From Octopus vulgaris (Eukaryota): a stretch of 64,000 nucleotides of DNA. Positions 9,221 through 58,774 of this stretch are shown in pieces. Below the pieces are notes generated by a model that worked only from the letters and a program-made list of their open reading frames with translations, was not told the origin of the DNA and did not search any database. The position numbers and the translations under genes are program-made. Every line of letters begins with the position of its first letter. The stretch's first letter is position 1. The stretch is taken from NCBI GenBank assembly GCA_951406725.2, contig OX597824.1, positions 53,320,001 through 53,384,000 on the forward strand, read 5' to 3'.

Positions 9221-11454
9221 TGTTCTTTCCTTCTTTCTTCAAATTTTCTTCCGTTTCTCGCCCAGTGTTTTCCATACACCTAGGGCAGAGAAGCTCATTG
9301 TATGCATTCCCAGACTACATACGCAAATTCACAGATAAAATATGTATTTAAAAATTAATAAATAAATAAATTCATGGATGGATGTTGTTTTCACAGCGAT
9401 AATGCTCTTCTCAGTACATGAGCCGTTCCAGTTAATACGATTTTTTGCACTTCCTGTAGGGATGGTAAGCCTGGAATCATTTTCAAATAGGTTTCAGTAA
9501 CTTTTTTTATCATTCCTAGAGATCCTACAATCACTGGTACTGTAGTCGCCTTGATATGCCACATTTTTTCAATTTCTATTAGCAGGTCTTTATATTTACT
9601 AATCTTGTCAAATTCTTTCGCCGCTATATTGTGATCGCAAGGGATACTCATGTCAATTAATACACACATCTTTTTTGTCTGATCTTTTATAATAATATCC
9701 GGTTTATTAGCTTTTATAGTCTTGTCGGTCTGTACAGGGAAGTCCCATAGAATCGACACATTTTCTCCCTCAGTCACAGCTTCAGGATGGTATTTATACC
9801 ATTTGTCAGCGGTTTTGATTTTATAATACCTACATATTGTCCAATGTAAATACTGGCCGACTCTGTCATGTCTTGCTTTATATTCTGCAGGTGCTAAGAC
9901 TCTACACCCTGAGATTAGGTGGTCTATTGTTTCAATCTCATCGTTACAGAATCGGCATTTTGGGTCAGCTCCATTTTTTACCACATTGGCTTGGTAGTTC
10001 CGGGTTAATAAGCTTTGGTCTTGAGCAGCTAATATGAAACCTCCACTCTCTGCTTTTAGCCCTGAGCTTCGTAACCATTGGTGCGTGTGTTTCTGGTCGA
10101 CATCAGCTTGTTTGCTACGGGTCACATACTTGCCATGGAGAGGTTTCTGTTCCCATCTGCTAGCTAAATGTTCATGTGCTTTTGTCTTTGCAATTAATTT
10201 TATTTTCTTTGCAGCTGCAGTTGGCGCATTTCCTTCAGCCTGATCAATCTGGTGGGTATCTAAGAGATCAGCAGCGAATTGTTTGCTCTCTTTGAGAATA
10301 GAGTGAAGTTTTTTCGGTCTTTCATGTTTTTCAACAAGTTTTAGCATCCAATCGTTGGTTACTTCAAGGTATTTGGCCAGTCCGATTGTGGTGGTTTTGT
10401 ATGTAAGTTCAAGCTGGATCAAACCTCGACCTCCTTGAGCTCTGGGAAGGTAAAGGCGATCCACGTCTGCCTTTGGATGGTGCATCTTATTACAAGTCAG
10501 TAGCTTGCGGATTTTTCTGTCAATTTTCATTATTTCACTGGTATTCCAGTTAAGCAAATTGAAGCTATAAAGAACAACTGGTACTGCTAAGGAATTTATG
10601 GCTAACACCTTATTATATACATTCAGCTCAGATTTCAGGACAGCTCGAACTTTTCTATAGCATTCCTTCCTAACCTTCTCTTTCATGCTTGCATGTTCCT
10701 GCTCAAGTTCCTTTATTACTGTTTCGACATCTAATTCGATTGAACTAGACTTTACCAATTTCCCTTTCTTAAAAGTGGCTTTGGCACACTTTTCAAGGAC
10801 AAACTCCATCCCGATATCATCACTGAATCCTTTCACGGTATGTAATAATCCTTCAAGCCATTTTTTTTTGGCATATAGCTTTAAATCATCCATATAAAAT
10901 AGATGGCTTATTTTCCTGTTGTCAATTTTGTAGCCATATCCTGTTCTATTCAGTTCACTTGAGAGTGGTATTAGTTCTATGCAGAAAATTAGTGATGAAA
11001 GTGAGTCACCTTGGAAAATTCCACAGTTTATGCTATTGTTGCTTGAGCGCAATTCTCCATTAGAATGATATAATTGGAGCTTCGTGTTCCATAGTGATAT
11101 ATTATACTTTAAAAAATCTGAAATCACAAGAGAAATTTTGAAAATGTCCAGCGATTTCAGAATCCACGAATGCGGTATGCTGTCAAAGGCTTTTTTATAA
11201 TCAATCCATGAAGAGCTGAGATTTCTGCGCTTGTTATGGCAGTTCTCAAGGATCATGCGATTAATTAGGAGCTGATCTTTGCATTCGTATGAGCCTCGTC
11301 TGCATCCTTTTTGTTCAGTGAGAAAGAGGTTATTCTCTTCCATAAACGTATATGTTTTCTCTACTAGAATAGATGTCAAAATCTTATAGGTAGTAGATAA
11401 ACATGTCTAGTTTTTGGTTCTTTCGTTTTGTTATTTTGGGGGAGGAGGTAAGTA
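9221..11454 (-). mobile_element. 5'-truncated R4/Dong-clade non-LTR retrotransposon in an (ATT/TAA)n repeat
   Basis: RT + zinc knuckle + RLE ORF; (ATT)n abuts both ends (9186-9220, 11455-11551); Dong elements are known to target (TAA)n. Confidence 0.85.
9391..11379 (-). CDS. Reverse transcriptase with C-terminal CCHC and PD-(D/E)xK restriction-like endonuclease (partial)
   Basis: EQKGCRRGS, IDYKKAFDS, GIFQGDSLS, FYMDDLKL, CRFC..ETIDHLISGC, RHD, KPDIII..IDMSIP..KISKY; the expected YKYLG motif is absent. Confidence 0.9.
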   Translation of the reverse strand: MTSILVEKTYTFMEENNLFLTEQKGCRRGSYECKDQLLINRMILENCHNKRRNLSSSWIDYKKAFDSIPHSWILKSLDIFKISLVISDFLKYNISLWNTKLQLYHSNGELRSSNNSINCGIFQGDSLSSLIFCIELIPLSSELNRTGYGYKIDNRKISHLFYMDDLKLYAKKKWLEGLLHTVKGFSDDIGMEFVLEKCAKATFKKGKLVKSSSIELDVETVIKELEQEHASMKEKVRKECYRKVRAVLKSELNVYNKVLAINSLAVPVVLYSFNLLNWNTSEIMKIDRKIRKLLTCNKMHHPKADVDRLYLPRAQGGRGLIQLELTYKTTTIGLAKYLEVTNDWMLKLVEKHERPKKLHSILKESKQFAADLLDTHQIDQAEGNAPTAAAKKIKLIAKTKAHEHLASRWEQKPLHGKYVTRSKQADVDQKHTHQWLRSSGLKAESGGFILAAQDQSLLTRNYQANVVKNGADPKCRFCNDEIETIDHLISGCRVLAPAEYKARHDRVGQYLHWTICRYYKIKTADKWYKYHPEAVTEGENVSILWDFPVQTDKTIKANKPDIIIKDQTKKMCVLIDMSIPCDHNIAAKEFDKISKYKDLLIEIEKMWHIKATTVPVIVGSLGMIKKVTETYLKMIPGLPSLQEVQKIVLTGTAHVLRRALSL

Positions 11455-11925: not shown

Positions 11926-11969
<44 letters not shown>

Positions 11970-12391
11970 TAGCATTAAAGACCCGTCGTTGCCGGGTCAT
12001 AGTGCTAGTGCATGTGTATATGTGTATATATATGTGTACATATTACATGTACATCTATATATATACATCTACACATAAAATGCAAAATACAAAGTTATAT
12101 CTTGATATCGCTAGTGATAGCAATACTCAAAATATATAACAGACTGGAATTGTTTTATTATTACCCACAAGGGGCAAACATAGAGGGGACAATACAACCT
12201 GATGTGGGGTCTGATTAACGAATGGGTTTACAAAAAAAGGCGAATTTAAAACTTTACAAAAATTACAAAAATATTAAAAATTGAATGAGGAACAGACCGG
12301 AAGACATCACGGATGGAGTGGGAGCGGGTTTAGCTCGGACCCCACGAGCCCCGCCTCCCTACTGATACTTTGGTTTCGTCTAGTTTTACAT

Positions 12392-15300
12392 TTATGTGGG
12401 ATCATCCACTCGCAACTTTCGTGCTACATCTTTCCATCGTTCTTCGTACACTCTCTTAGTCAGGCATTTTCTCTCCAGCCCTATCTTCCTTTTCAGGTGA
12501 AAGATGAAGTAATTCATCAAACCAGGGCCGGAGATGAACTTGCCTGACCGTAAACCTTTCATTCTCGTCTTCCATATCACCTCTTTCGCAATTGCTACTA
12601 CAACGAGAAAACTATTATTACCTTCTTTCGCGAGGAAATCTGGTGGGTCAATTTTTGTAATAGACTCAGTCGACAGCTGTACTCTTCGTGTGCTTGACAA
12701 CAGCTGTTCGGCGTAAACCCACACCTCTGACACGACCGAACAATGAACAATAGCGTGCGGGACGGTTTCCTTATCCCGCTCGCATCTTGGACATATCGGA
12801 CTGTCTTGGCCACCGTGCCTTGCGAGTTTATCCCGAACAGGTAGAGCTCCTCTGTAGCATTGCCATGCCAGAGACTTCTGGAAGTTGTCCGGTGTCTTCG
12901 GCTCGAACGTACGTCGGAACAGACTGGCCAGCTGATTATCGTCGAGACCTAGGGTTTCAAGGTATCTTCACATTCCGCCTCTACCAACCATCTATAGAAG
13001 AATGTGGTGGAACCCCCACCGCAGGCGTTGCCCGAGCGACAGAATAGCAGGAGAGCCTTGCGACACTCCGTGTACCATGTGCCCAGTTTCGATCTACGAT
13101 TCAGCCAGGTTTCCCATCCACCGAAACTAGTGAACTTGGGAAACATCAGTTTTGCTAGCGGAGACCACACCCGTTCACCATCCAGGTAGAGCCACAGATG
13201 TCTTAACATCAGCGCATGTCTGCGCATCATCAGCCAAGGCATCCCTAGCCCACCCTTTAACGGTTGTTGACAGCAAGTAGAGCGTTTCACAAGTGGTTTC
13301 CCGCCCTTCCACAAGAAGTAGAAGAGTTGTCTTTCCAACTTGATCAACCACGAATCAAGGCAAGGAATGACGGAAAGGCGGTAGGTGATAACCGATGCGA
13401 TAAACACATTGGCTACCTCCGCCCTCCCTTTCAGGGATAGCCACCGCCAAGATCAGGTCTTGGTTACTGCAGCCACCCTGCTCGATACCTCGCCCCAATT
13501 CTTCTCTATTTGGAGGTCTGGACCGAACCAAACCCCTAGCAACTTAATCGGACCCTCCGTCCAACGTCCCACGACGCTGTCAGGAGGCATCGACTTGCCT
13601 CTCCAGGTGCCGAGTTGCAAGCCGACTGACTTTTCACGATTAACCTTTGCTCCTGTCACCGTCTCGTAAACCTCTATGGCCTTGCTTACCCTCTGTAGGT
13701 GGTCCATTTCGGTTACGATGATGGTGATGTCATCCGCGTACGCTGACACTGATTTTCCACAACCTGGCTGTCTCGGGATGCCGCTCAGTTTTCGCAGTAA
13801 TGGCTCAAGAGCCATCACGTACAAAAGCGGGGAGAGCGGACACCCTTGACGAACCGAGCGATTGATGTTGAACGGCTTCGACAAAAACCGTTCACCCGAA
13901 CTACCGAGTCGATGTTGTCGTAAATTTAGATAATCCACCTGAGGAAGCCAAGGCCCAGCCCGAACTGTGCCAGGGCAGATACCAGGTAGCGATGGTCGAC
14001 CCTATCGAATGCTTTAGTTGGTCTAAATGGACCAGTGCCCCACCCTTGCCAGAATCACTATTAAACCCCTCTATAGTGTACCGCATAAGATGGAGATTAT
14101 CCTGAATGGTTCTGCCGGGAACGGCACTTGTCTGTGCCTCCCCGATCAGACCATCCGCGACACGCGCTAATCTTTTCGATAACACTTTGGCCAAAATCTT
14201 CAACTCTGTGTTTAGCAGAGTGATGGGCCTGAAATTATCAATGCACTCCCCCTTGCTCGGGTACTTTCTGACGAGTTTCACTACTCCCCGGCGCACAGAT
14301 CTGGGTATGAACCCGTTCTGCTGCCAGTTCGTATAGACCTCCGCCAGTAGGTGCCCGAACAAGTCTGGCATACTCTTATATAACTCATAGGGTAGACCAT
14401 CTAAACCCGGCGCCTTGCCCGCGCTGCAGTCCACCATCGCCTCAACCACCTCCCCAGGCGTGATTGGCCCTTCATAGCCCTCCGCATCTCGCCCCGATAA
14501 GCGCGGCAGCCCGTCGAAGAGGTCCGTAAAGGCCCTCCTCCTATCCAGTCCGCCGCACTCACCGAAAAGCTGAGCGAAGTGCTCCTGAAAGGCCTCACAC
14601 ATCTCCTCGGGCTCGTTTATCAACTCACCTTGTTGGTTCGTCATAGATCGAATCGTGGCGTCGTTACCACGCTGAGCTTCCACCACTCGGGCCCATCTCA
14701 CGGCGTTGATTCCTTCACAACCCATTGCGCGGATCCTAGCCCTGACAATGCAGCCCATGTGTTTGGCCTCGAGGTGCTGGTTTAACGCCAGTCTCTTGGC
14801 CGTCACCTGAGTCGCAGAGCCAGTTTTCAAGGCTTCCTCTAATTCCTTAACTAGAGTAGATTCCCTCCTAGCCTCTCTAGCCACTAATCCTATGCTATAT
14901 CTAATAGACTCGAATTTGATGGCTCGCTTGAGGGCATACCACCATTTGTTATTAATGATGGCACCAGATAGCGCCCTCTGAATTATAGTCCTAATCCGGT
15001 CTCTGTACTCCTTAATCGCCAAAAGGGACGTATTAAGTTTCCAGTAACCGGAGCCTCTATTTTTAACCTTATCTATGTCAAGCTTACAGGTGACCATTTT
15101 ATGATCACTGTAGCTGACCAGGTAAAACTGTGGACACTTAGCTATTTTTCTGTCTACTTTTCTAATTAGTATCCTATCTATGTATGACCTGGAAGATCCG
15201 TCGCTGTTTGACCATGTCCACAATGGAGCGTTCGGAAATTCCAACCTATAAGGATCTGCTAGCTCAAAGCGGCTTAGCAGTTCCAGGAAGCCAATGTTAC

Positions 15301-15781
15301 CTTTTCTATCTGGACGCAAGCCAACACAATCTACATCCGCTTTGCAAATTGTGTTAAAGTCTCCTAGCACAACTAATGAATGCGAAGTACCAAGAAAGTT
15401 TTCCAGTTCTCGAAAATAATCACTTTGCCCTTTTTGGTTGGGTGCGTAAATTGCAACCAGTCTGATAACTTTACCGTTACTGAACGTCAAATCCATGACG
15501 ACCAGCCTACCTTCTGGGTCTGAAAAAATTAACTTTTTCTCAAAAACCCGGTTTCTTTTTAATAGGACCAACACCCCACCCACGCCTGTAGGACTGGCCG
15601 GAGAGAAAAAACACTCGTAGCCGTCAAACAGCGGGAGTAGACCTCTTGGCCCCTCTAACCGGGTTTCTGTAGCAACAATAACATCCAAATTACGCGACCT
15701 GATATCATTAAGGAAGCGACCTTGCTTCCAGCTTGATCCCAGGCCGCGCACATTTAAACAACCAACATAAATGTAATCCAT
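12392..15781 (-). pseudogene. ORF2: APE endonuclease, reverse transcriptase and C-terminal zinc finger
   Basis: LNVRGL, TETRL, IYAPN, GDFN, SYIDR, SDHK, KAPGLDGLP, NFRPITLLN, RQGCPLSP, AYADD, CPRC..ETVPHAIVHC; frameshifts at ~14015 and ~12955, in-frame TGA at 13453. Confidence 0.92.
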
Positions 15782-15789
15782 GACTTACC

Positions 15790-17086
15790 TTATATCAGTG
15801 GTTCGACTTTTCCTTTCTCTTCTTCATTTTTTTCCTCTTTTTCTGGGCCTCGTGGGGGAGTCTGACGCAGGCCCTCGAATATATATGGTGATAATATATC
15901 CATTCTGAGAGGGCCCACGTCATGAAAAAATTCGGACTTTATCCGTCCGTAATCCTTCCGGCCTATCCTGTACAATATGAAATCGGTTTTTTTAAAAAAT
16001 TTTTCTACTTTGGCCATAGCTGCCAACACATCAATGAGTCTATTATTTGAGGCCTTAATGGCCATAAATGAGTTTAATGTTTCTCTTTTTTTCTTTAGGC
16101 TTACTTTCGGAGGGGTGGTTTCAGTTTTTCTTTTTTTCCTAGTGATTTTTGACCACCCCTCCTCATTTTTCGTTTCCTCGCTTTTTGTTTCTTTTGTTAC
16201 TTCCGCCGCTGATTCCGTCACCTCCTCACCTTCAGTTGTCCCTTCTGGGCTGTCTGGCGTTGTTTGTGGTGACACTTCTTCCGTTTTTTTATCTGGCTGA
16301 GCTGCTTCCTGCGGTTTGGGTTGGCATTCTGCCCTCACATGCCCTTTCTTTCTGCAGCCGAAGCACCTCGGCTTTCTACCCTCCACAAAGACCACGACTC
16401 TTTCGTCCTCACTGATTTTCAGTGTCTCCGGTATATCTTCGAGGGTTTGTATCTCTGCCTGTATGGCCATCGAGATACGCTGCCCTTTTCAATGTTCCTC
16501 CTCTTCTACTGTGGCCCGGAGGATGTTTATTTTATCCTCCAGGCCTACCATAACTGCTGCCACCAGACATGTGGCGTCCGCTTCTGGCGGAATATTATTT
16601 ATTGTTATTCTTGAGGTTCTTTTGCCTCTATACAGGGGGAGGAGAACAATATTCTCTGCTTTCATAGGTTCCGTAGATAGCTTTTTGGCTATTTCCTCTG
16701 TTTCAAATCTCACCTCCACTGTACCGTACTTTTTCCCGCGATTAATGTAAGTGATCTTATTCCAAATCGGTTTCAAGTAATTTTCGATCTTTTTTTCTTC
16801 TATTTTTTGAATAGACTTGCTTGTAATATTAAATGTTTTGTATATGATTCTTTTTTTTTTCAATTTCTTCTTGTTTTGGGGCATTCGTAAACACCGTTAC
16901 TTCTGTGCCCTCTTTTTTAAAACATTCTGCGTATTTCTGCAGGTTTTCTGTGTCGATATTTTTAACTTTCTTTCCGGCCACTTCGGAAAATTTTCTAGCT
17001 GGTGCTGGGGTCTCTTCTATTCTCGGCGACACCGCCGGTGATCCTGCATCACTTGACACGGGTGAATAGGAGATGGGGGAGTCCAT
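15790..17086 (-). pseudogene. ORF1: gag-like nucleic-acid-binding protein with CX2CX4HX4C knuckle
   Basis: Three consecutive ORF pieces; CFGCRKKGHVRAEC; frameshift in the A-run at ~16855, in-frame TGA at 16489. Confidence 0.85.
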
Positions 17087-17340
17087 CTCCGAAAACTGGC
17101 TTAACAAGCCTTTAGCACAACCGCGACAAAAAGCTTTTTGTTTTGCAAGCCTCAAATGCAGCAATAATGATAGTTTTTCCCCCACGGAGGGGGGAACACC
17201 AACACGAAGCCCTCGCAAGAAGGCTGATTACAATAATTGTACAACAACAGACAATACAGACAAAGTCAACAGTATTTCAAAAACACAGTAGAATATAACA
17301 GAGGAAAATATAACTCACTACGCAATGAAGACTGCAATGA

Positions 17341-19189
17341 TTTTATTACTACCCACAAAAGGGCGAACATAAAGGGGATAATACAATCGGGGAACTTAAA
17401 ATAAGAAAGCGAATGACAAGAAAAGGGAAAAATAAAAATAATAATGACATATGAAAGAATATTTACAATAAGATCCCCGGAATCAAGAGGTTACATATTC
17501 GTCACATATATTTCACCAAATTTTCTTTTTTCTCTTTTTTTTTTCCTCTCACAATTCTATACATCTTCTATAATTGTTTCCACTTCTCTGAAGTCCATCA
17601 CTGAGTCCTCAAGTAGCCGCTCTCTCACTCGAACCTTCGTGTAAAATATTACACTCTCTCCGGCAGCTCTGAAGAACTCAGCGGCACCTTCCTCGGGGAT
17701 TAGAGCAGTCTCCTCCCACCGGTCGGTCATCCTGTTGACCCATATATGTCCCTCCGTTTTACTTGTTAATTCACTCATTTCAGGGCAGAAATGGTAGGTT
17801 ACTAACTTATAGTAATAGTAATCTTGTTTCCGTCCTGCGTTTTCCTTCATCTTCCTTTTCGGGCTTATTTCTTCCTTGTTCTCCTCTCTTTGATTCTCTC
17901 TTTCTCTCTTTTTGTTTTCTCTTCTTTCTTTTTCCTTCTCTTGTCTTTTTGGCTTTTTGTCTGTCGTCTCTCTACCCTGTGCCTTATGTTCTTTTCCTGT
18001 TGTTTCTTTTTCTTTTCGTGCACCATCTTTTCCTTTCTCTTGCTTCTGTTCCTTCTCTTGTTCTTTCCCTGTTTTCTCTCTTTTCTTCCAGTGTACCCTC
18101 CCTCTCCTTCTCTTGATTCTGTTTTGGTTCTTTCTCTATTACTTCTCTACCCTGTGAACTCTGTTCCTCTTCCATTAATTTCTTCCCTTTGATTTCATTT
18201 TCCTTCAGTGTGTTGTTATTTCCTTTCTCTTGTTGTTTCACCGTTATATCCTTTTCCTTGCTTTCGCTGTTCTTTACTTCGTGTTCTTTTTCCTTCTCTT
18301 CTTTGTTCTCTCCACCCTGTGTCTCTCCCTGCTCCATTTCCCCTTCCGCTGTGAATTCATATAGCGGACACTCCCCTCTTATGTGTCCTCCTGACCCACA
18401 CAAGTAGCAGTTCGGCCTTCTCCCCTCCACAACTACGCTCATTGTTCCCTCACTTTCAAGTTCAATTTGGAAGGGAAACCCTTCCATGTCTTCCTCTGTG
18501 GCCATCAGCCACATCTCCACTCCGAATCCCCTCCAGTTCACAACACTGGTCTCCCTGATCGAGCCCATTTCCATTTCATCCCTTGCCGACCCCAGGATAG
18601 CTGTTACCAGCATTTCCGTTTCTATTTCTGGGGGCACCCCTGGCATCTCTACCTGAACCCCCCCTCGTCCCTCACATGTTAGCCACATGGTGAAGCCTTC
18701 AGCCTTCAGTAACCGTGGAAGCCACGAGGCCGCAACCTCCCCCGTTGCGCATCTCACGTCCACCGCACCATACTTCCTTCCTCCGCTCACGCACGTTGCC
18801 CCTTTCACAATGTCCCCCAGACACTTCTCAATCTCCTCCATCACTACTCTCACCAATTCCTCTGCAATTCTGTCCCGCGTCCTGCACGTGATAGTCCTAC
18901 CATTCCTCTCCTCCATCGCTTCAGCAGGCGGGACCAGCCCCACGCTGTCACCCTCCCCCCTGATGAACCTTTCACAATCCATCAACTGCTCCTTTCCAAA
19001 GAACACCTCTCCCACCATAAGAGGCTCATCACTCCTCGTAGCGGCGACCCCCGCGCAAGTCTCCATGACTTGAGGGTCGACGCACCTTCTATAACAAGGT
19101 TCCAACACGTGGCGGCAAGCGCCTCACGCGATTCAACCTATTTTTTCAATTTAACTGTTCACACAAAAAACAACTAACCAACGCAATGA
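17341..19189 (-). mobile_element. ORF1-only non-autonomous LINE (half-L1-like, element B)
   Basis: Same 5' nonamer TCATTGCGT and ~45-nt 3' tail as element A; single ORF1 homologue; no EN or RT. Confidence 0.8.
17984..19108 (-). CDS. ORF1-like protein with zinc knuckle (continues frameshifted to ~17557)
   Basis: GRKYGAVDVR, VPPEIETEMLVTAIL and VVVEGRRPNCYLCGSGGHIRGEC align by eye with element A ORF1. Confidence 0.8.
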   Translation of the reverse strand: MLEPCYRRCVDPQVMETCAGVAATRSDEPLMVGEVFFGKEQLMDCERFIRGEGDSVGLVPPAEAMEERNGRTITCRTRDRIAEELVRVVMEEIEKCLGDIVKGATCVSGGRKYGAVDVRCATGEVAASWLPRLLKAEGFTMWLTCEGRGGVQVEMPGVPPEIETEMLVTAILGSARDEMEMGSIRETSVVNWRGFGVEMWLMATEEDMEGFPFQIELESEGTMSVVVEGRRPNCYLCGSGGHIRGECPLYEFTAEGEMEQGETQGGENKEEKEKEHEVKNSESKEKDITVKQQEKGNNNTLKENEIKGKKLMEEEQSSQGREVIEKEPKQNQEKEREGTLEEKRENRERTREGTEARERKRWCTKRKRNNRKRT

Positions 19190-19760
19190 AGACTGCAATT
19201 GTTATCTCTTCTTTTTTTTCTACGTTGTATACTTTATAGACAATAGTCTTTTCTTTAATTTATTTTTTTTATTATCCATCTGGACTATTCCATTTCTGCA
19301 CGCTGATTTTATTTTTATTTAATTCCCATTCATGTGAAACCACTTATTCAAGTTCAAATCATTGATGCAATTTTATACCAATTGCTGTTTTTACTTATAT
19401 TATACTTTAGTTTGATTTTAATTATTACTTACTACATATAATTCAATTGTTATTATTATTTTTATTGTTAAAGTGAAAACATCTGACATAAAATAGAGAA
19501 ATATTTTTGTTTCACTTTTAACACGTAATACTGAAATAGTGGAGATGATATGATATTGCTATGGGCTCGCTCTAGGCAAGAAGTTTCCCATGAAACTACA
19601 TGGACTCTAAGTAAGGCATGTGTAAAATTTGAATGAAATTGATTGTGTAGTTCTCAAGTTTTAGGGAAACACAGACAGACAGACAGACAGGCAGACAGAC
19701 AGACACACACATTCTCAGTTTTATATATATAAAGATATATATATATATATATATTTATAC

Positions 19761-55312: not shown

Positions 55313-56414
55313 TTGTATCTATAAACACATTTCGGCGGTTATGAACATCACGTACCTGAACCGAATTGGGGACGGTGGTAGAGGTCTCGATTGTGTCAGT
55401 TTTAAATGATATTCGGCATAGAGAATAAAATACAAATTCTGCAAGTCCAAAGAATGACAAAGGAGAATTGGTCAGGCACGGGGATGGAATTGTGATTGCA
55501 CGGCGATCTGGAGAGTATCGAAGCCATCTCCGACCTGATCTACCTACCTAATGCAACTCAGTTATTTGTAGCAGTAGAGAGCAGAAGGCCAAGATGTCAC
55601 ATTTGTAGTGAAACAAACCATTTAAAGGCTTTCTGTCCCATGCAAAAAAAAAATGAAAAAAACCCCGCTACTACAGACACCTCTAAGTCAACAAAAACAA
55701 CAGCAACAACAACAACAGCATCAGTGCGACGAGCAACAGCATCCAAAACTAAAACAATAGCAGCATCAACAGAAAGTCCAACAGGAGAAATCTATTCAAC
55801 AACATCAGCACCTGTACAATACCCAAGAAAAAACTATAGCAACACCTACACCATTGCAAGCAAGAGAACCCTTACCCTCATCAGTCAACCAGGCCACCAG
55901 CTTAGAAATGCGTAATTGTGCAGACATACCCCTCCCACTGTCACAGACTTTTCCGACTGTGAAAACCCGTCTAACGAGGAAAACAATCTTGGAAACCCAC
56001 CAGAATGGATCCTGGTGAAAGAAAAAGAGGGGAAAATTACAAACTAAAAAGTGTGGTACAAGACTAAAAACAAAGAGATTGGGGGAGGAGACACAGAAAC
56101 TAACAAACTATCACACACCCACACACCCTACATTAACATAATTATAAACGTCTCCAATGCTACAAATACCACCAACATTACAAACATTTCAACAAACGAA
56201 AACAGATAGCAATCGAGGCCAATACGAACGGCACTCTCAATGTGCCGTATTACTAATTGTAATAGACACAAACAAGAACATGAGAAAACATTCAGAAATA
56301 TACAGGCATTACTCTAAATGCATCCATCGCACCCCCGCACGACACCCCTATTCACATAAAACTTATAAAAACAACTAAACAAACTTATAACAAACTGAAA
56401 GCAAAATACATTAT

Positions 56415-57250
56415 TTACATTTATGGACATTTGCCCTCATCTTGTTTGTTGTTAACACAACGTTTCGACTGATATACTCTCCAGCCTTCATCAGGTGTCT
56501 TGGGGAAATTTCGAACTTGGGTTCTCATTCCTAAGATATTTTTCGATGTTATTATTATTACTATTATTATTATTCAGGTCACTGCCTGGAATCGAACTCG
56601 GAATTAGTAGCTACTCATATCTGCACTTGGTCTGCTTAGGAGGTTATGTCCTAACATATGTGCTGCTTCTTTTAGTTTTTGTATTTTTCCAGTGGTGTTC
56701 TCTGTTTATTATTTTAACGTCCTCCCACAGAGGGAGGTGGTTACCGCTTTTCCATACATGATCAGCTATACCCGATTTACCAATACCTCTTCGTGTCACA
56801 GCTTTGCGATGAGGAAGCGATATGTTTCGCCTTTGTATAACCTATCACAGCTGCATGGGATGGAGTAGACGCAGTCTTTGGTCATATTCTTTTCTATTGG
56901 TGGTTTTACTCGAAGGAGATATTTGCGACATGTTGTATTACTTTTGAATACTGTCCTGATGTCATATGGGCCGCATATCCTTTGTATCTTTTCAGAGAGG
57001 CTTTTCACATAGGGTAGACAGACTGTGGTCAGTTTATGAGTTTCATCCGCTCTTATCTTCATAATTGGAGTGGATAGTATGTTTTGGGGGTAGTTGTTGT
57101 TTAATAGTATACGGATGTCCTGGATCCATACTTGCTGTGGGTTATTAATACGTCCAGGAATGCTAGCTGATTGTCTTTTTCCTTTTCTATTGTGAAATGT
57201 ATGGATGGCTTTATTGAGTTCACATGACCTAACAGAACTTGGACATCTTT
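56415..57250 (-). mobile_element. 5'-truncated Penelope-like element (Poseidon/Penelope-like) with pLTR
   Basis: VNSIKPSIHFTIEKEKDNQLAFLDVLI, LPYVKSLSEKI..RTVFK, VYSIPCSCDRLYKGET; downstream hammerhead. Confidence 0.85.
56454..56499 (-). ncRNA. Canonical minimal type I hammerhead ribozyme
   Basis: gacac-CTGATGA-a-ggctg gagagtatat cagtc-GAAA-C-G-TT-gtgtt; intact core, palindromic AACGTT. Confidence 0.82.
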
Positions 57251-58774
57251 AAGAGTAATACAACACTTCGCAAATATCTCCTTCGAGGAAAAACCTCCAA
57301 TAGAAGAGGCACACTGTGGAAATAAATCCACAATTCAGTCTTTGGTGGATCAAGATGGACGCACGGTACTCGAGCACGAGCAGATGTGCGCGGCATTTCA
57401 ACAGCTCTTTGCCGAACTGCTTGAGACGAATGACAATCCGGAACGCAGGATAGACTTCAGTACCTCGACGGCATCCCACGACTCTCGGCAAGGGGGTTGG
57501 GTCGTTGAGAAATGCCGATAACAGCCTCGGAAATACGGGATGCGACGATGAGTTGCATGGAGGGCAACTCACCTAGTTTAGATGGTCTTCCCTACAAGCT
57601 TTACTTTGATACACCAGATTTGTTTTGCGGCCTCTTATCTTCCCCAGTCGACAGCTTCCATAAGTTGAAGAGCGGAGACACTGATGAAAAAGAACCTGAA
57701 CAAGGGATATCAAATAGAAAGTTTGGGGCTATAACACTACAGAATGCAGATTTTAAAATTTTGGCCAAGGTGTTCGCAAAGAGGTTGGCGCTTGTCGTCG
57801 AGGAGCTGATTGGTGATGCGCAAACATGAGCCATTCCAAGTACATCAATCCATGACAACCTCCATTTCATGTGATACATCATAGACAGGGGTGGGTAAAG
57901 AATCTAGCATGGGTGGGGCCCTGATCAGTTTGGATCGACCTAAAGCCTTCGCTAGGGTTGACCACCAATACTTGGCGGCTGTTCTCATGGCTGTTGGTTT
58001 TGGTCCCGTTTTCCGCGGCTGGATAGCCTCAATGTACAGGGACATCTGCTCAGTAGTTCGGACGAACGCTTACCTATCGGAACCATTCAGCATCATGCAT
58101 TCGGTCCGTCAGGAATGTCCACTCGCGTCTCTTCTGTATATACTGGCTCTAGAGCCACTACCGTTGAAATCGGAGGCGTTGAGAGGCATCCCACGTGAAC
58201 TACGGCGTAAGAGATGCAGACGGCGTCACCGTCATAGAATACGAGGAGGTAACAGGAGCAAAAATTAACCAAAAATTAACCAAAAAATGTCAGTGGACTT
58301 GCAGCTCAACGCCTGGAGAAGTTGATCCATGCTATAGAATTACGTCGTGGGACGCTGGACGGAGAAACTGGTTAAATTGTTCTGGGTCTGGTTTGGTCCA
58401 AATTTTCAGGCGGAAGAGAACTGGGACAAGGTGACGAGCAGAGTGATCAGTTTCACCCAGAAATGGGTCGTGGTTAGGGTTATCCCGCTGAGATGGCGAA
58501 TGCTTAAATCGCCTCCGTTATATATTACCACTTGACCGTCATTCCACTAGTCAAGCACTCCTTTTGCTGTCAACACCTGCTGAATGGAAAGTTGGGCATA
58601 CTGAGGCTGCTGATGCGTAGACATGCGCCGAGGATACGACGTCTCCAGCGCTTCCTTGGCTGTAAGCATGTATGGTCCCCGTTTGTCAGACAGGATTTTC
58701 CTCAGCTCGTCTTTTTTATAGTACTGGATCTAGCGTAGACCGAGGGAGGGCGTCTGGTACCTAAAGTGTATGCA

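Follow-up and report, generated by a model that had tools for sequence, protein, structure and literature searches.

Why should two different retroelements lie head-to-tail, bounded by copies of one short sequence, inside a DNA transposon? The question is raised by a 64,000-nt stretch of the Octopus vulgaris genome (assembly GCA_951406725.2, contig OX597824.1, positions 53,320,001 to 53,384,000 of the forward strand; hereafter the window, situated on C11 of the 2.8-Gb genome), in which a long interspersed element (LINE; element A) and a shorter element B interrupt a Helitron. We consider it probable that A-type LINEs insert at one fixed position in a non-autonomous Helitron family, and that B is a partner carrying only open reading frame 1 (ORF1), likely moved into the same position later by an A-type ORF2. 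Across the genome, A-type elements prefer this site, the insertions into old Helitrons are independent of one another, the same site is occupied by seven families of ORF1-only elements and by another family of full-length ones, and the resulting stacks reach 10 units.

Architecture of the locus

The original prediction described two different LINEs stacked head-to-tail and delimited exactly by three motif copies. The copies were re-found at 12141, 17329 and 19190, and AGACTGNAAT occurs five times in the window (0.79 expected; 0 of 100 shuffles reached five), the remaining two matches lying elsewhere on the minus strand. However, a 19-bp stretch (ACGCAATGAAGACTGCAAT; 17320-17338 = 19181-19199) is common to the middle and right copies, so that the element boundaries are not exactly the 12-mers; likewise, A is a LINE as described, but B is an ORF1-only element and not a second full LINE. 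A, B and the Helitron are all on the minus strand, in the following arrangement:

11969..12152, minus strand: Helitron 3' arm (short form, non-autonomous), with the hairpin and CTAG end at 11969; 182/184 identical to the empty copy L005, the same ends being present in other copies
12141..12152, plus strand: native target site AGACTGGAATTG, left copy
12151..17328, minus strand: element A, L1-group (Tx1-like) LINE of 5.2 kb without poly(A), terminating 3' in ...AATAATAAAACA, neither ORF intact
12395..15784, minus strand: A ORF2, with apurinic/apyrimidinic-type endonuclease (APE), reverse transcriptase (RT) and zf-RVT; interrupted by three frameshifts and, near 13453, by an in-frame stop
15793..17086, minus strand: A ORF1, carrying a single CCHC knuckle and interrupted by a frameshift near 16850 and by a stop near 16489
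17320..17338, plus strand: first of the two 19-bp repeats that flank B, at the middle junction; it takes in A terminal bases and a C variant
17339..19189, minus strand: element B, ORF1-only and non-autonomous, 1.85 kb; ORF 19066-17626 with one frameshift
19181..19199, plus strand: second copy of the 19-bp duplication, by sequence identity to 17320-17338
19200..19735, minus strand: Helitron 5' arm, with the TC start at 19735; 511/529 identical to L005; transcripts of the elements probably begin in its final few bases

When A and B are removed, the flanks rejoin, as had been predicted, to a Helitron of about 0.7 kb with TC and hairpin-CTAG ends: the restored element (718 bp) aligns to the empty copy L005 (715 bp), the two flanks overlapping only in the 12-mer. 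The host is a non-autonomous Helitron, as it combines a 5' TC, a 3' hairpin (-11 kcal/mol, z -4.8) followed by CTRR, insertion between A and T, lack of a target-site duplication (TSD) and many copies, 5 distinct empty ones showing both ends. A search with the arm yielded 30 loci, namely 21 empty short Helitrons with one AGACTGGAATTG each, 2 empty long ones, 6 filled ones (the window included) and 1 interrupted by other DNA; since empty Helitrons exist, the objection that the original prediction had raised against itself falls away. The long form carries about 310 extra bases between AGACTGGAATTG and the arm. Exact patterns, whose counts are lower bounds, recovered 131 unoccupied sites of the short form, 902 of the long form (long copies outnumbering short ones by about 6:1) and 743 long-form copies that keep an intact AGACTGGAATTG followed by T(T/A)AGC about 310 bp from the arm. 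The possibility that the target is an RNA gene was rejected, Rfam giving only sub-threshold simple-repeat microRNA and small nucleolar RNA matches on three Helitron loci. On C1 (77.35 Mb), long-form Helitrons (L225-L227) stand in tandem about 2 kb apart.

Genome-wide site preference

The A-type 3'-end pattern (which misses families with other 3' tips) has 216 matches in the genome, of which the 100 listed ones (C1-C10) were classified by their flanks. First inserts in the Helitron account for 55 of these (51 in the long form, between CCATGT and GTTCAAA, and 4 in the short form), and a further 14 are placed at junction-type flanks, 12 of them in, or one unit from, a Helitron stack (for the other 2 the host was not reached). 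These flanks support, across the genome, the proposal of Helitron-targeted insertion at one site. Full-length copies are concentrated among Helitron-first insertions (35/39, as compared to 5/21 elsewhere; p 4e-7), and the site was found filled in 8/30 long-form copies and in 5/29 other arm loci. As a rough estimate, a few thousand target positions stand against millions of matching 5-mers, which would correspond to an enrichment of about a thousand-fold beyond the short motif. A second full-length LINE family, about 83% identical to A, uses the short Helitron site.

Coding capacity of elements A and B

Element A is an L1-group non-LTR retrotransposon, in which ORF2 encodes an APE, an RT and a C-terminal zinc finger (PF03372, PF00078 and PF13966 by Pfam). 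Its long ORF2 pieces match the ORF2 of copy L166, which is open over 1128 aa, at 93-95% identity, and its ORF1 matches that of copy L157 (open, 431 aa) at 84-87%. The open 1128-aa ORF2 of a natural copy is closer to L1 than to R2 (best solved relatives L1 ORF2p, E 2e-63, versus R2, 1e-21), and the nearest named ORF2 relative belongs to Argonauta hians (61% identity). The family also displays traits of target-primed reverse transcription, i.e. 5'-truncated copies and clean TSDs of 16-21 bp (14 of 40 loci). Membership of the Tx1 clade is likely. More than 20% of the flanks fall in one repeat, the target-preference criterion of PMC4494074 (55/100 for first inserts, 69/100 with stack junctions). 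No named Tx1 reference was found among 120 listed matches or 10 clusters. ORF1 contains one CX2CX4HX4C knuckle (Pfam zf-CCHC E 0.011, below the cut-off; atlas CCHC clusters 0.92); such a gag-like knuckle is a Tx1 feature, but it is shared with non-vertebrate L1s and is not diagnostic.

Within the A family, the copies L236-L291 and L157-L168 diverge by about 1% in the 3' ORF2 region but by 12-15% in the ORF1/5' region, where older copies differ by up to 28%, which suggests that the 5' part has been swapped repeatedly. Moreover, a subfamily about 88% identical to A is present in full length at another recurring sequence (GAGTATTCAGTTGGT...TTTTTGAGTATC, followed by G at the junction; L278 at C8:58469399, L076 at C3:136224257 and L287 at C10:43625807), likely a second target repeat.

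Element B is a HAL1-like ORF1-only element, characterized by a single ORF1-homologous ORF, the absence of endonuclease and RT, a 3' tail shared with A (about 45 nt) and independent mobility. A relative of the B family is 37% identical to an A-type ORF1 over 208 aa (E 4e-43); beyond the 3' tip and this distant ORF1 homology, A and B of the window are unrelated. The 1.7-1.9 kb stack units comprise seven ORF1-only families, six of which yield ORFs that are open over 457-515 aa (identities of 28-68% with one another and of 33-37% with A ORF1). Units of this kind occur as first or sole inserts, being first in 4/8 filled long-form copies.

Growth of the stacks

Extension of 20 long stacks that begin with A revealed further units in 18 (all except L257 and L276; 5 were not followed to the arm), and the longest ones consist of A-A plus eight units (C1) and of eight ORF1-only units without A (C22). 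As junction variants spread towards the arm, in the C13 stack also across an A, the stacks likely grow on the 5'-arm side of the Helitron. Within the window, the middle and right copies share A's terminal ACGCAATGA together with the C variant, the left copy is native, and other B-family copies have TCAATGA-type ends at that junction. A duplication of 19 bp that takes in A's end, next to a native left copy, favours an order in which A would have inserted first and B would then have duplicated the A/arm junction. A strict 'A first' rule for all stacks was rejected, as it arose from sampling on A ends.

An alternative that we regard as unlikely, yet the most serious of those considered, is that long stacks result mainly from unequal crossing-over or conversion between tandem units, a process compatible with targeting of the first ones. 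It would account for C22 units 2-8 differing by 0-0.7%, for the intermediate units and the rise of distance with separation in the C1 and C13 arrays, and for the C16 and C31 stacks differing by one near-identical B; many stacks, on the other hand, mix families with ORF1 proteins as divergent as those given above, and the near-complete lack of relation between A and B in the window also counts against it.

We judge it improbable that A and B arrived in one event (by a read-through B-A transcript or a jump of the RT from A RNA to B RNA), which would leave Helitron targeting unaffected. The variant common to the middle and right copies beside a native left one (donor-like, and also present in L151), the leftmost position of A in most A-selected stacks together with their high proportion of further units, and pairs close in both units (e.g. 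L274/L280, 0.09% and 0.00%) would all fit such an event; against it, near-identical As have different neighbours or none, ORF1-only units can come first, stacks without A exist (C22, C19), local junction variants are copied across units, and L236/L275 differ by 0.23% in A versus 4.4% in the neighbour.

One non-Helitron stack was encountered twice, on chromosome C16 (18.21 Mb; L154) and on the small scaffold C31 (4.35 Mb; L155), with one versus two B units; these are possibly haplotypes, or a duplicate, differing in unit number.

Location of the targeting signal

The original prediction proposed to test the flanks for enrichment of the motif and of Helitron sequence. AGACTGGAATTG is not the target cue: the 743 intact long-form decoys are ignored, and in this form another sequence is mostly used. 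In 30 long-form copies none of the AGACTGGAATTG decoys was filled, versus 8 of the same 30 at the arm-side site, and each of the 9 site-1 fills that the A 3'-end search recovered among 30 loci ends in the short form. Furthermore, a leader-plus-decoy pattern has 0 genome matches versus 4 for leader plus short site (a comparison of low power alone), and where families f2/f3 have put AAAAAACGCG in place of the junction, subsequent units go on inserting beside the arm. Because the decoys are unused and the long form uses a different sequence, the 12-mer was rejected as the specificity determinant, and it is the Helitron 5' arm, beside the duplicated site, that likely carries the targeting signal.

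These data bear equally on the suggestion that the motif belongs to the elements' own 5' end, with the Helitron mimicking it and short homology alone explaining the targeting. The part of this suggestion that holds is that element copies carry motif-bearing, target-derived leaders to new, non-Helitron sites; the motif itself is native Helitron sequence, being present in empty copies, and 5'-truncated copies without a leader are also found at the site (L151, L267, C1 stack). As the sole cause it is refuted by the unused leader-matching decoys, unless decoy fills delete the 310-bp middle, and we accord it very little probability.

For 39 filled long copies, a Mantel test finds no correlation between the distances of the LINEs and those of their hosts (rho -0.14, p 0.84), and the hosts of 170 LINE pairs less than 1% diverged are themselves 6.5% diverged (minimum 2.9%), from which it follows that the insertions were independent. 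Hitchhiking, i.e. copying of LINE-filled Helitrons as units by rolling-circle transposition, would suit the older short-form set, where LINE, B and host each diverge by about 2-5%, but there too the contents differ per locus, and with near-identical LINEs in hosts 3-11% apart (which led us to reject it for the long-form set), truncation points that vary among loci and two host forms in use, it is the least credible explanation of all.

Several observations nonetheless weigh against targeted, successive insertion as a full account. As 31 of the 100 listed A-type 3' ends lie outside the Helitron, the specificity is a strong preference and not strict. Near-identical and graded neighbours in long arrays suggest that tandem duplication or exchange adds units, and some stack pairs are congruent in both of their units. 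The order in the window rests on two shared bases, at a junction whose sequence can travel with the RNA; the ages do not confirm it, since a very young A (0.09% from its nearest relative) has a neighbour whose best relative is just 98% identical, and B of the window has no ORF1 relative above 86%. Decoy fills that deleted the 310-bp middle would look like short hosts, and the spacing between nick and T-tract varies from about 3 to 12 nt.

Proposed mechanism

Clean TSDs, 16-21 bp long, flank 14 non-Helitron copies in a set of 40 loci; the next base is a purine in 14/14 (G 10, A 4) and the last a pyrimidine in 13/14. The bases before off-target junctions tend to mirror the native site of the subfamily, with ATGT in 5/6 site-2-type copies and AAT in 4/9 copies of the mixed AGAGGG class. 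At 5/6 of the non-Helitron 5' junctions inspected, the donor TSD and 4-8 nt of the Helitron arm precede the local sequence; leaders of this composition indicate that transcripts likely start in the arm.

Judging from these junctions, the endonuclease would nick a pyrimidine-purine step (mostly Y followed by G; at the native site putatively between AAT(T) and G) within a few bases of the T-rich beginning of the Helitron 5' arm, and the RNA would end 3' in some read-through bases that pair with the primer, in the manner of R1Bm and SART1. The transcripts would start 4-8 nt inside the arm, and the target-derived leader may help to finish a full-length insertion and may overwrite the junction. Each insertion would leave the 5' arm intact, and we propose that the site is thereby regenerated and the stack grows on the arm side. 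More broadly, and tentatively (we place it somewhat short of an even chance), the Helitron 5' arm may act as the landing signal, and also as the place where transcription starts, for two families of full-length LINEs and no fewer than seven ORF1-only passengers, which would build polar, HeT-A-like arrays in dispersed Helitrons, with specificity supplied by DNA outside the duplicated site and the order of neighbours by RNA-borne junction bases. Insertions of 17-28 nt, consisting of the 3' tip alone, were also observed with perfect TSDs of 16-21 bp (L124, L134, L141, L251, L263, L273).

Relation to known systems

The closest parallels come from crocodilians, where Tx1-Mar and SINEU-3 prefer Mariner-N4_AMi and Tx1-9_AMi prefers Harbinger (PMC4494074). 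There too, LINEs of the APE type favour a single position within an abundant DNA transposon, and non-autonomous partners insert at it as well; a TSD lies between insertions in tandem, the flanking sequence was put forward as the origin of transcription, and hitchhiking had to be excluded (PMC4494074). In contrast, the octopus target is a Helitron, the partners are seven protein-coding ORF1-only families and not short interspersed elements, the stacks are up to 10 units long, and two host forms place the signal outside the TSD. In Xenopus, Tx1L inserts into Tx1D, a non-autonomous piggyBac (as cited in PMC4494074), another case of a LINE with a fixed position within a DNA transposon that is non-autonomous; the host superfamily is a different one, and the citing passage mentions neither stacking nor ORF1-only partners.

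HAL1 (half-L1) and Ag-Sponge resemble B in being non-autonomous LINE derivatives with only an ORF1 protein (ORF1p) and a LINE-type 3' end (PMC5786205, PMC5753468), but the B-type ORF1s are just 33-37% identical to A ORF1, and the B-type elements are site-specific and stacked. The Drosophila HeT-A/TART/TAHRE elements also form polar head-to-tail arrays of autonomous and ORF1-only members, with same-subfamily runs and short 5' tags from upstream sequence (bioRxiv 10.1101/782904); they belong to the Jockey clade and occupy chromosome ends without TSDs, whereas the octopus arrays are interstitial, have TSD-like spacers and lie in a Helitron. In R1Bm and SART1Bm, reverse transcription starts when a short stretch of downstream target sequence carried by the RNA anneals to its target (PMC7265360), a likeness qualified by their R1 clade and ribosomal DNA or telomere targets, and by the fact that the octopus pairing is deduced from junctions alone.

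Neither a Helitron-targeting Tx1 LINE nor a Helitron target with ORF1-only stacking was found in our literature searches, although Repbase/Dfam and the supplements of PMC4494074 may list one, and the words 'nested' and 'target' are absent from the consulted part of the octopus repeat annotation (PMC13282606). The system operates in the manner of Tx1L/Tx1D and Tx1-Mar/SINEU, and Helitrons would join the known targets of site-preferring APE LINEs. The system is young (copies 0.1% apart, several with an open ORF2) and comes with a built-in control, as the two host forms and the unused decoy allow the duplicated sequence to be told apart from the targeting signal; APE LINE specificity beyond the few bases read by the nuclease becomes directly testable. 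The seven ORF1-only families, whose frames are kept open, bear on the role of ORF1p in targeting or in hijacking ORF2p.

Other elements in the window

About 560 bp from the Helitron end, and adjoining a (TAT)n tract, a 671-aa open stretch (9391-11406, minus strand) contains an RT, a zf-RVT and a C-terminal KPDI...DMS motif resembling a restriction-type endonuclease; it is likely a fragment of a Dong/R4-type LINE. A further broken L1-group element lies at about 55400-58720 (plus strand), its ORF2 pieces being 40-44% and its ORF1 30-39% identical to the A/B proteins.

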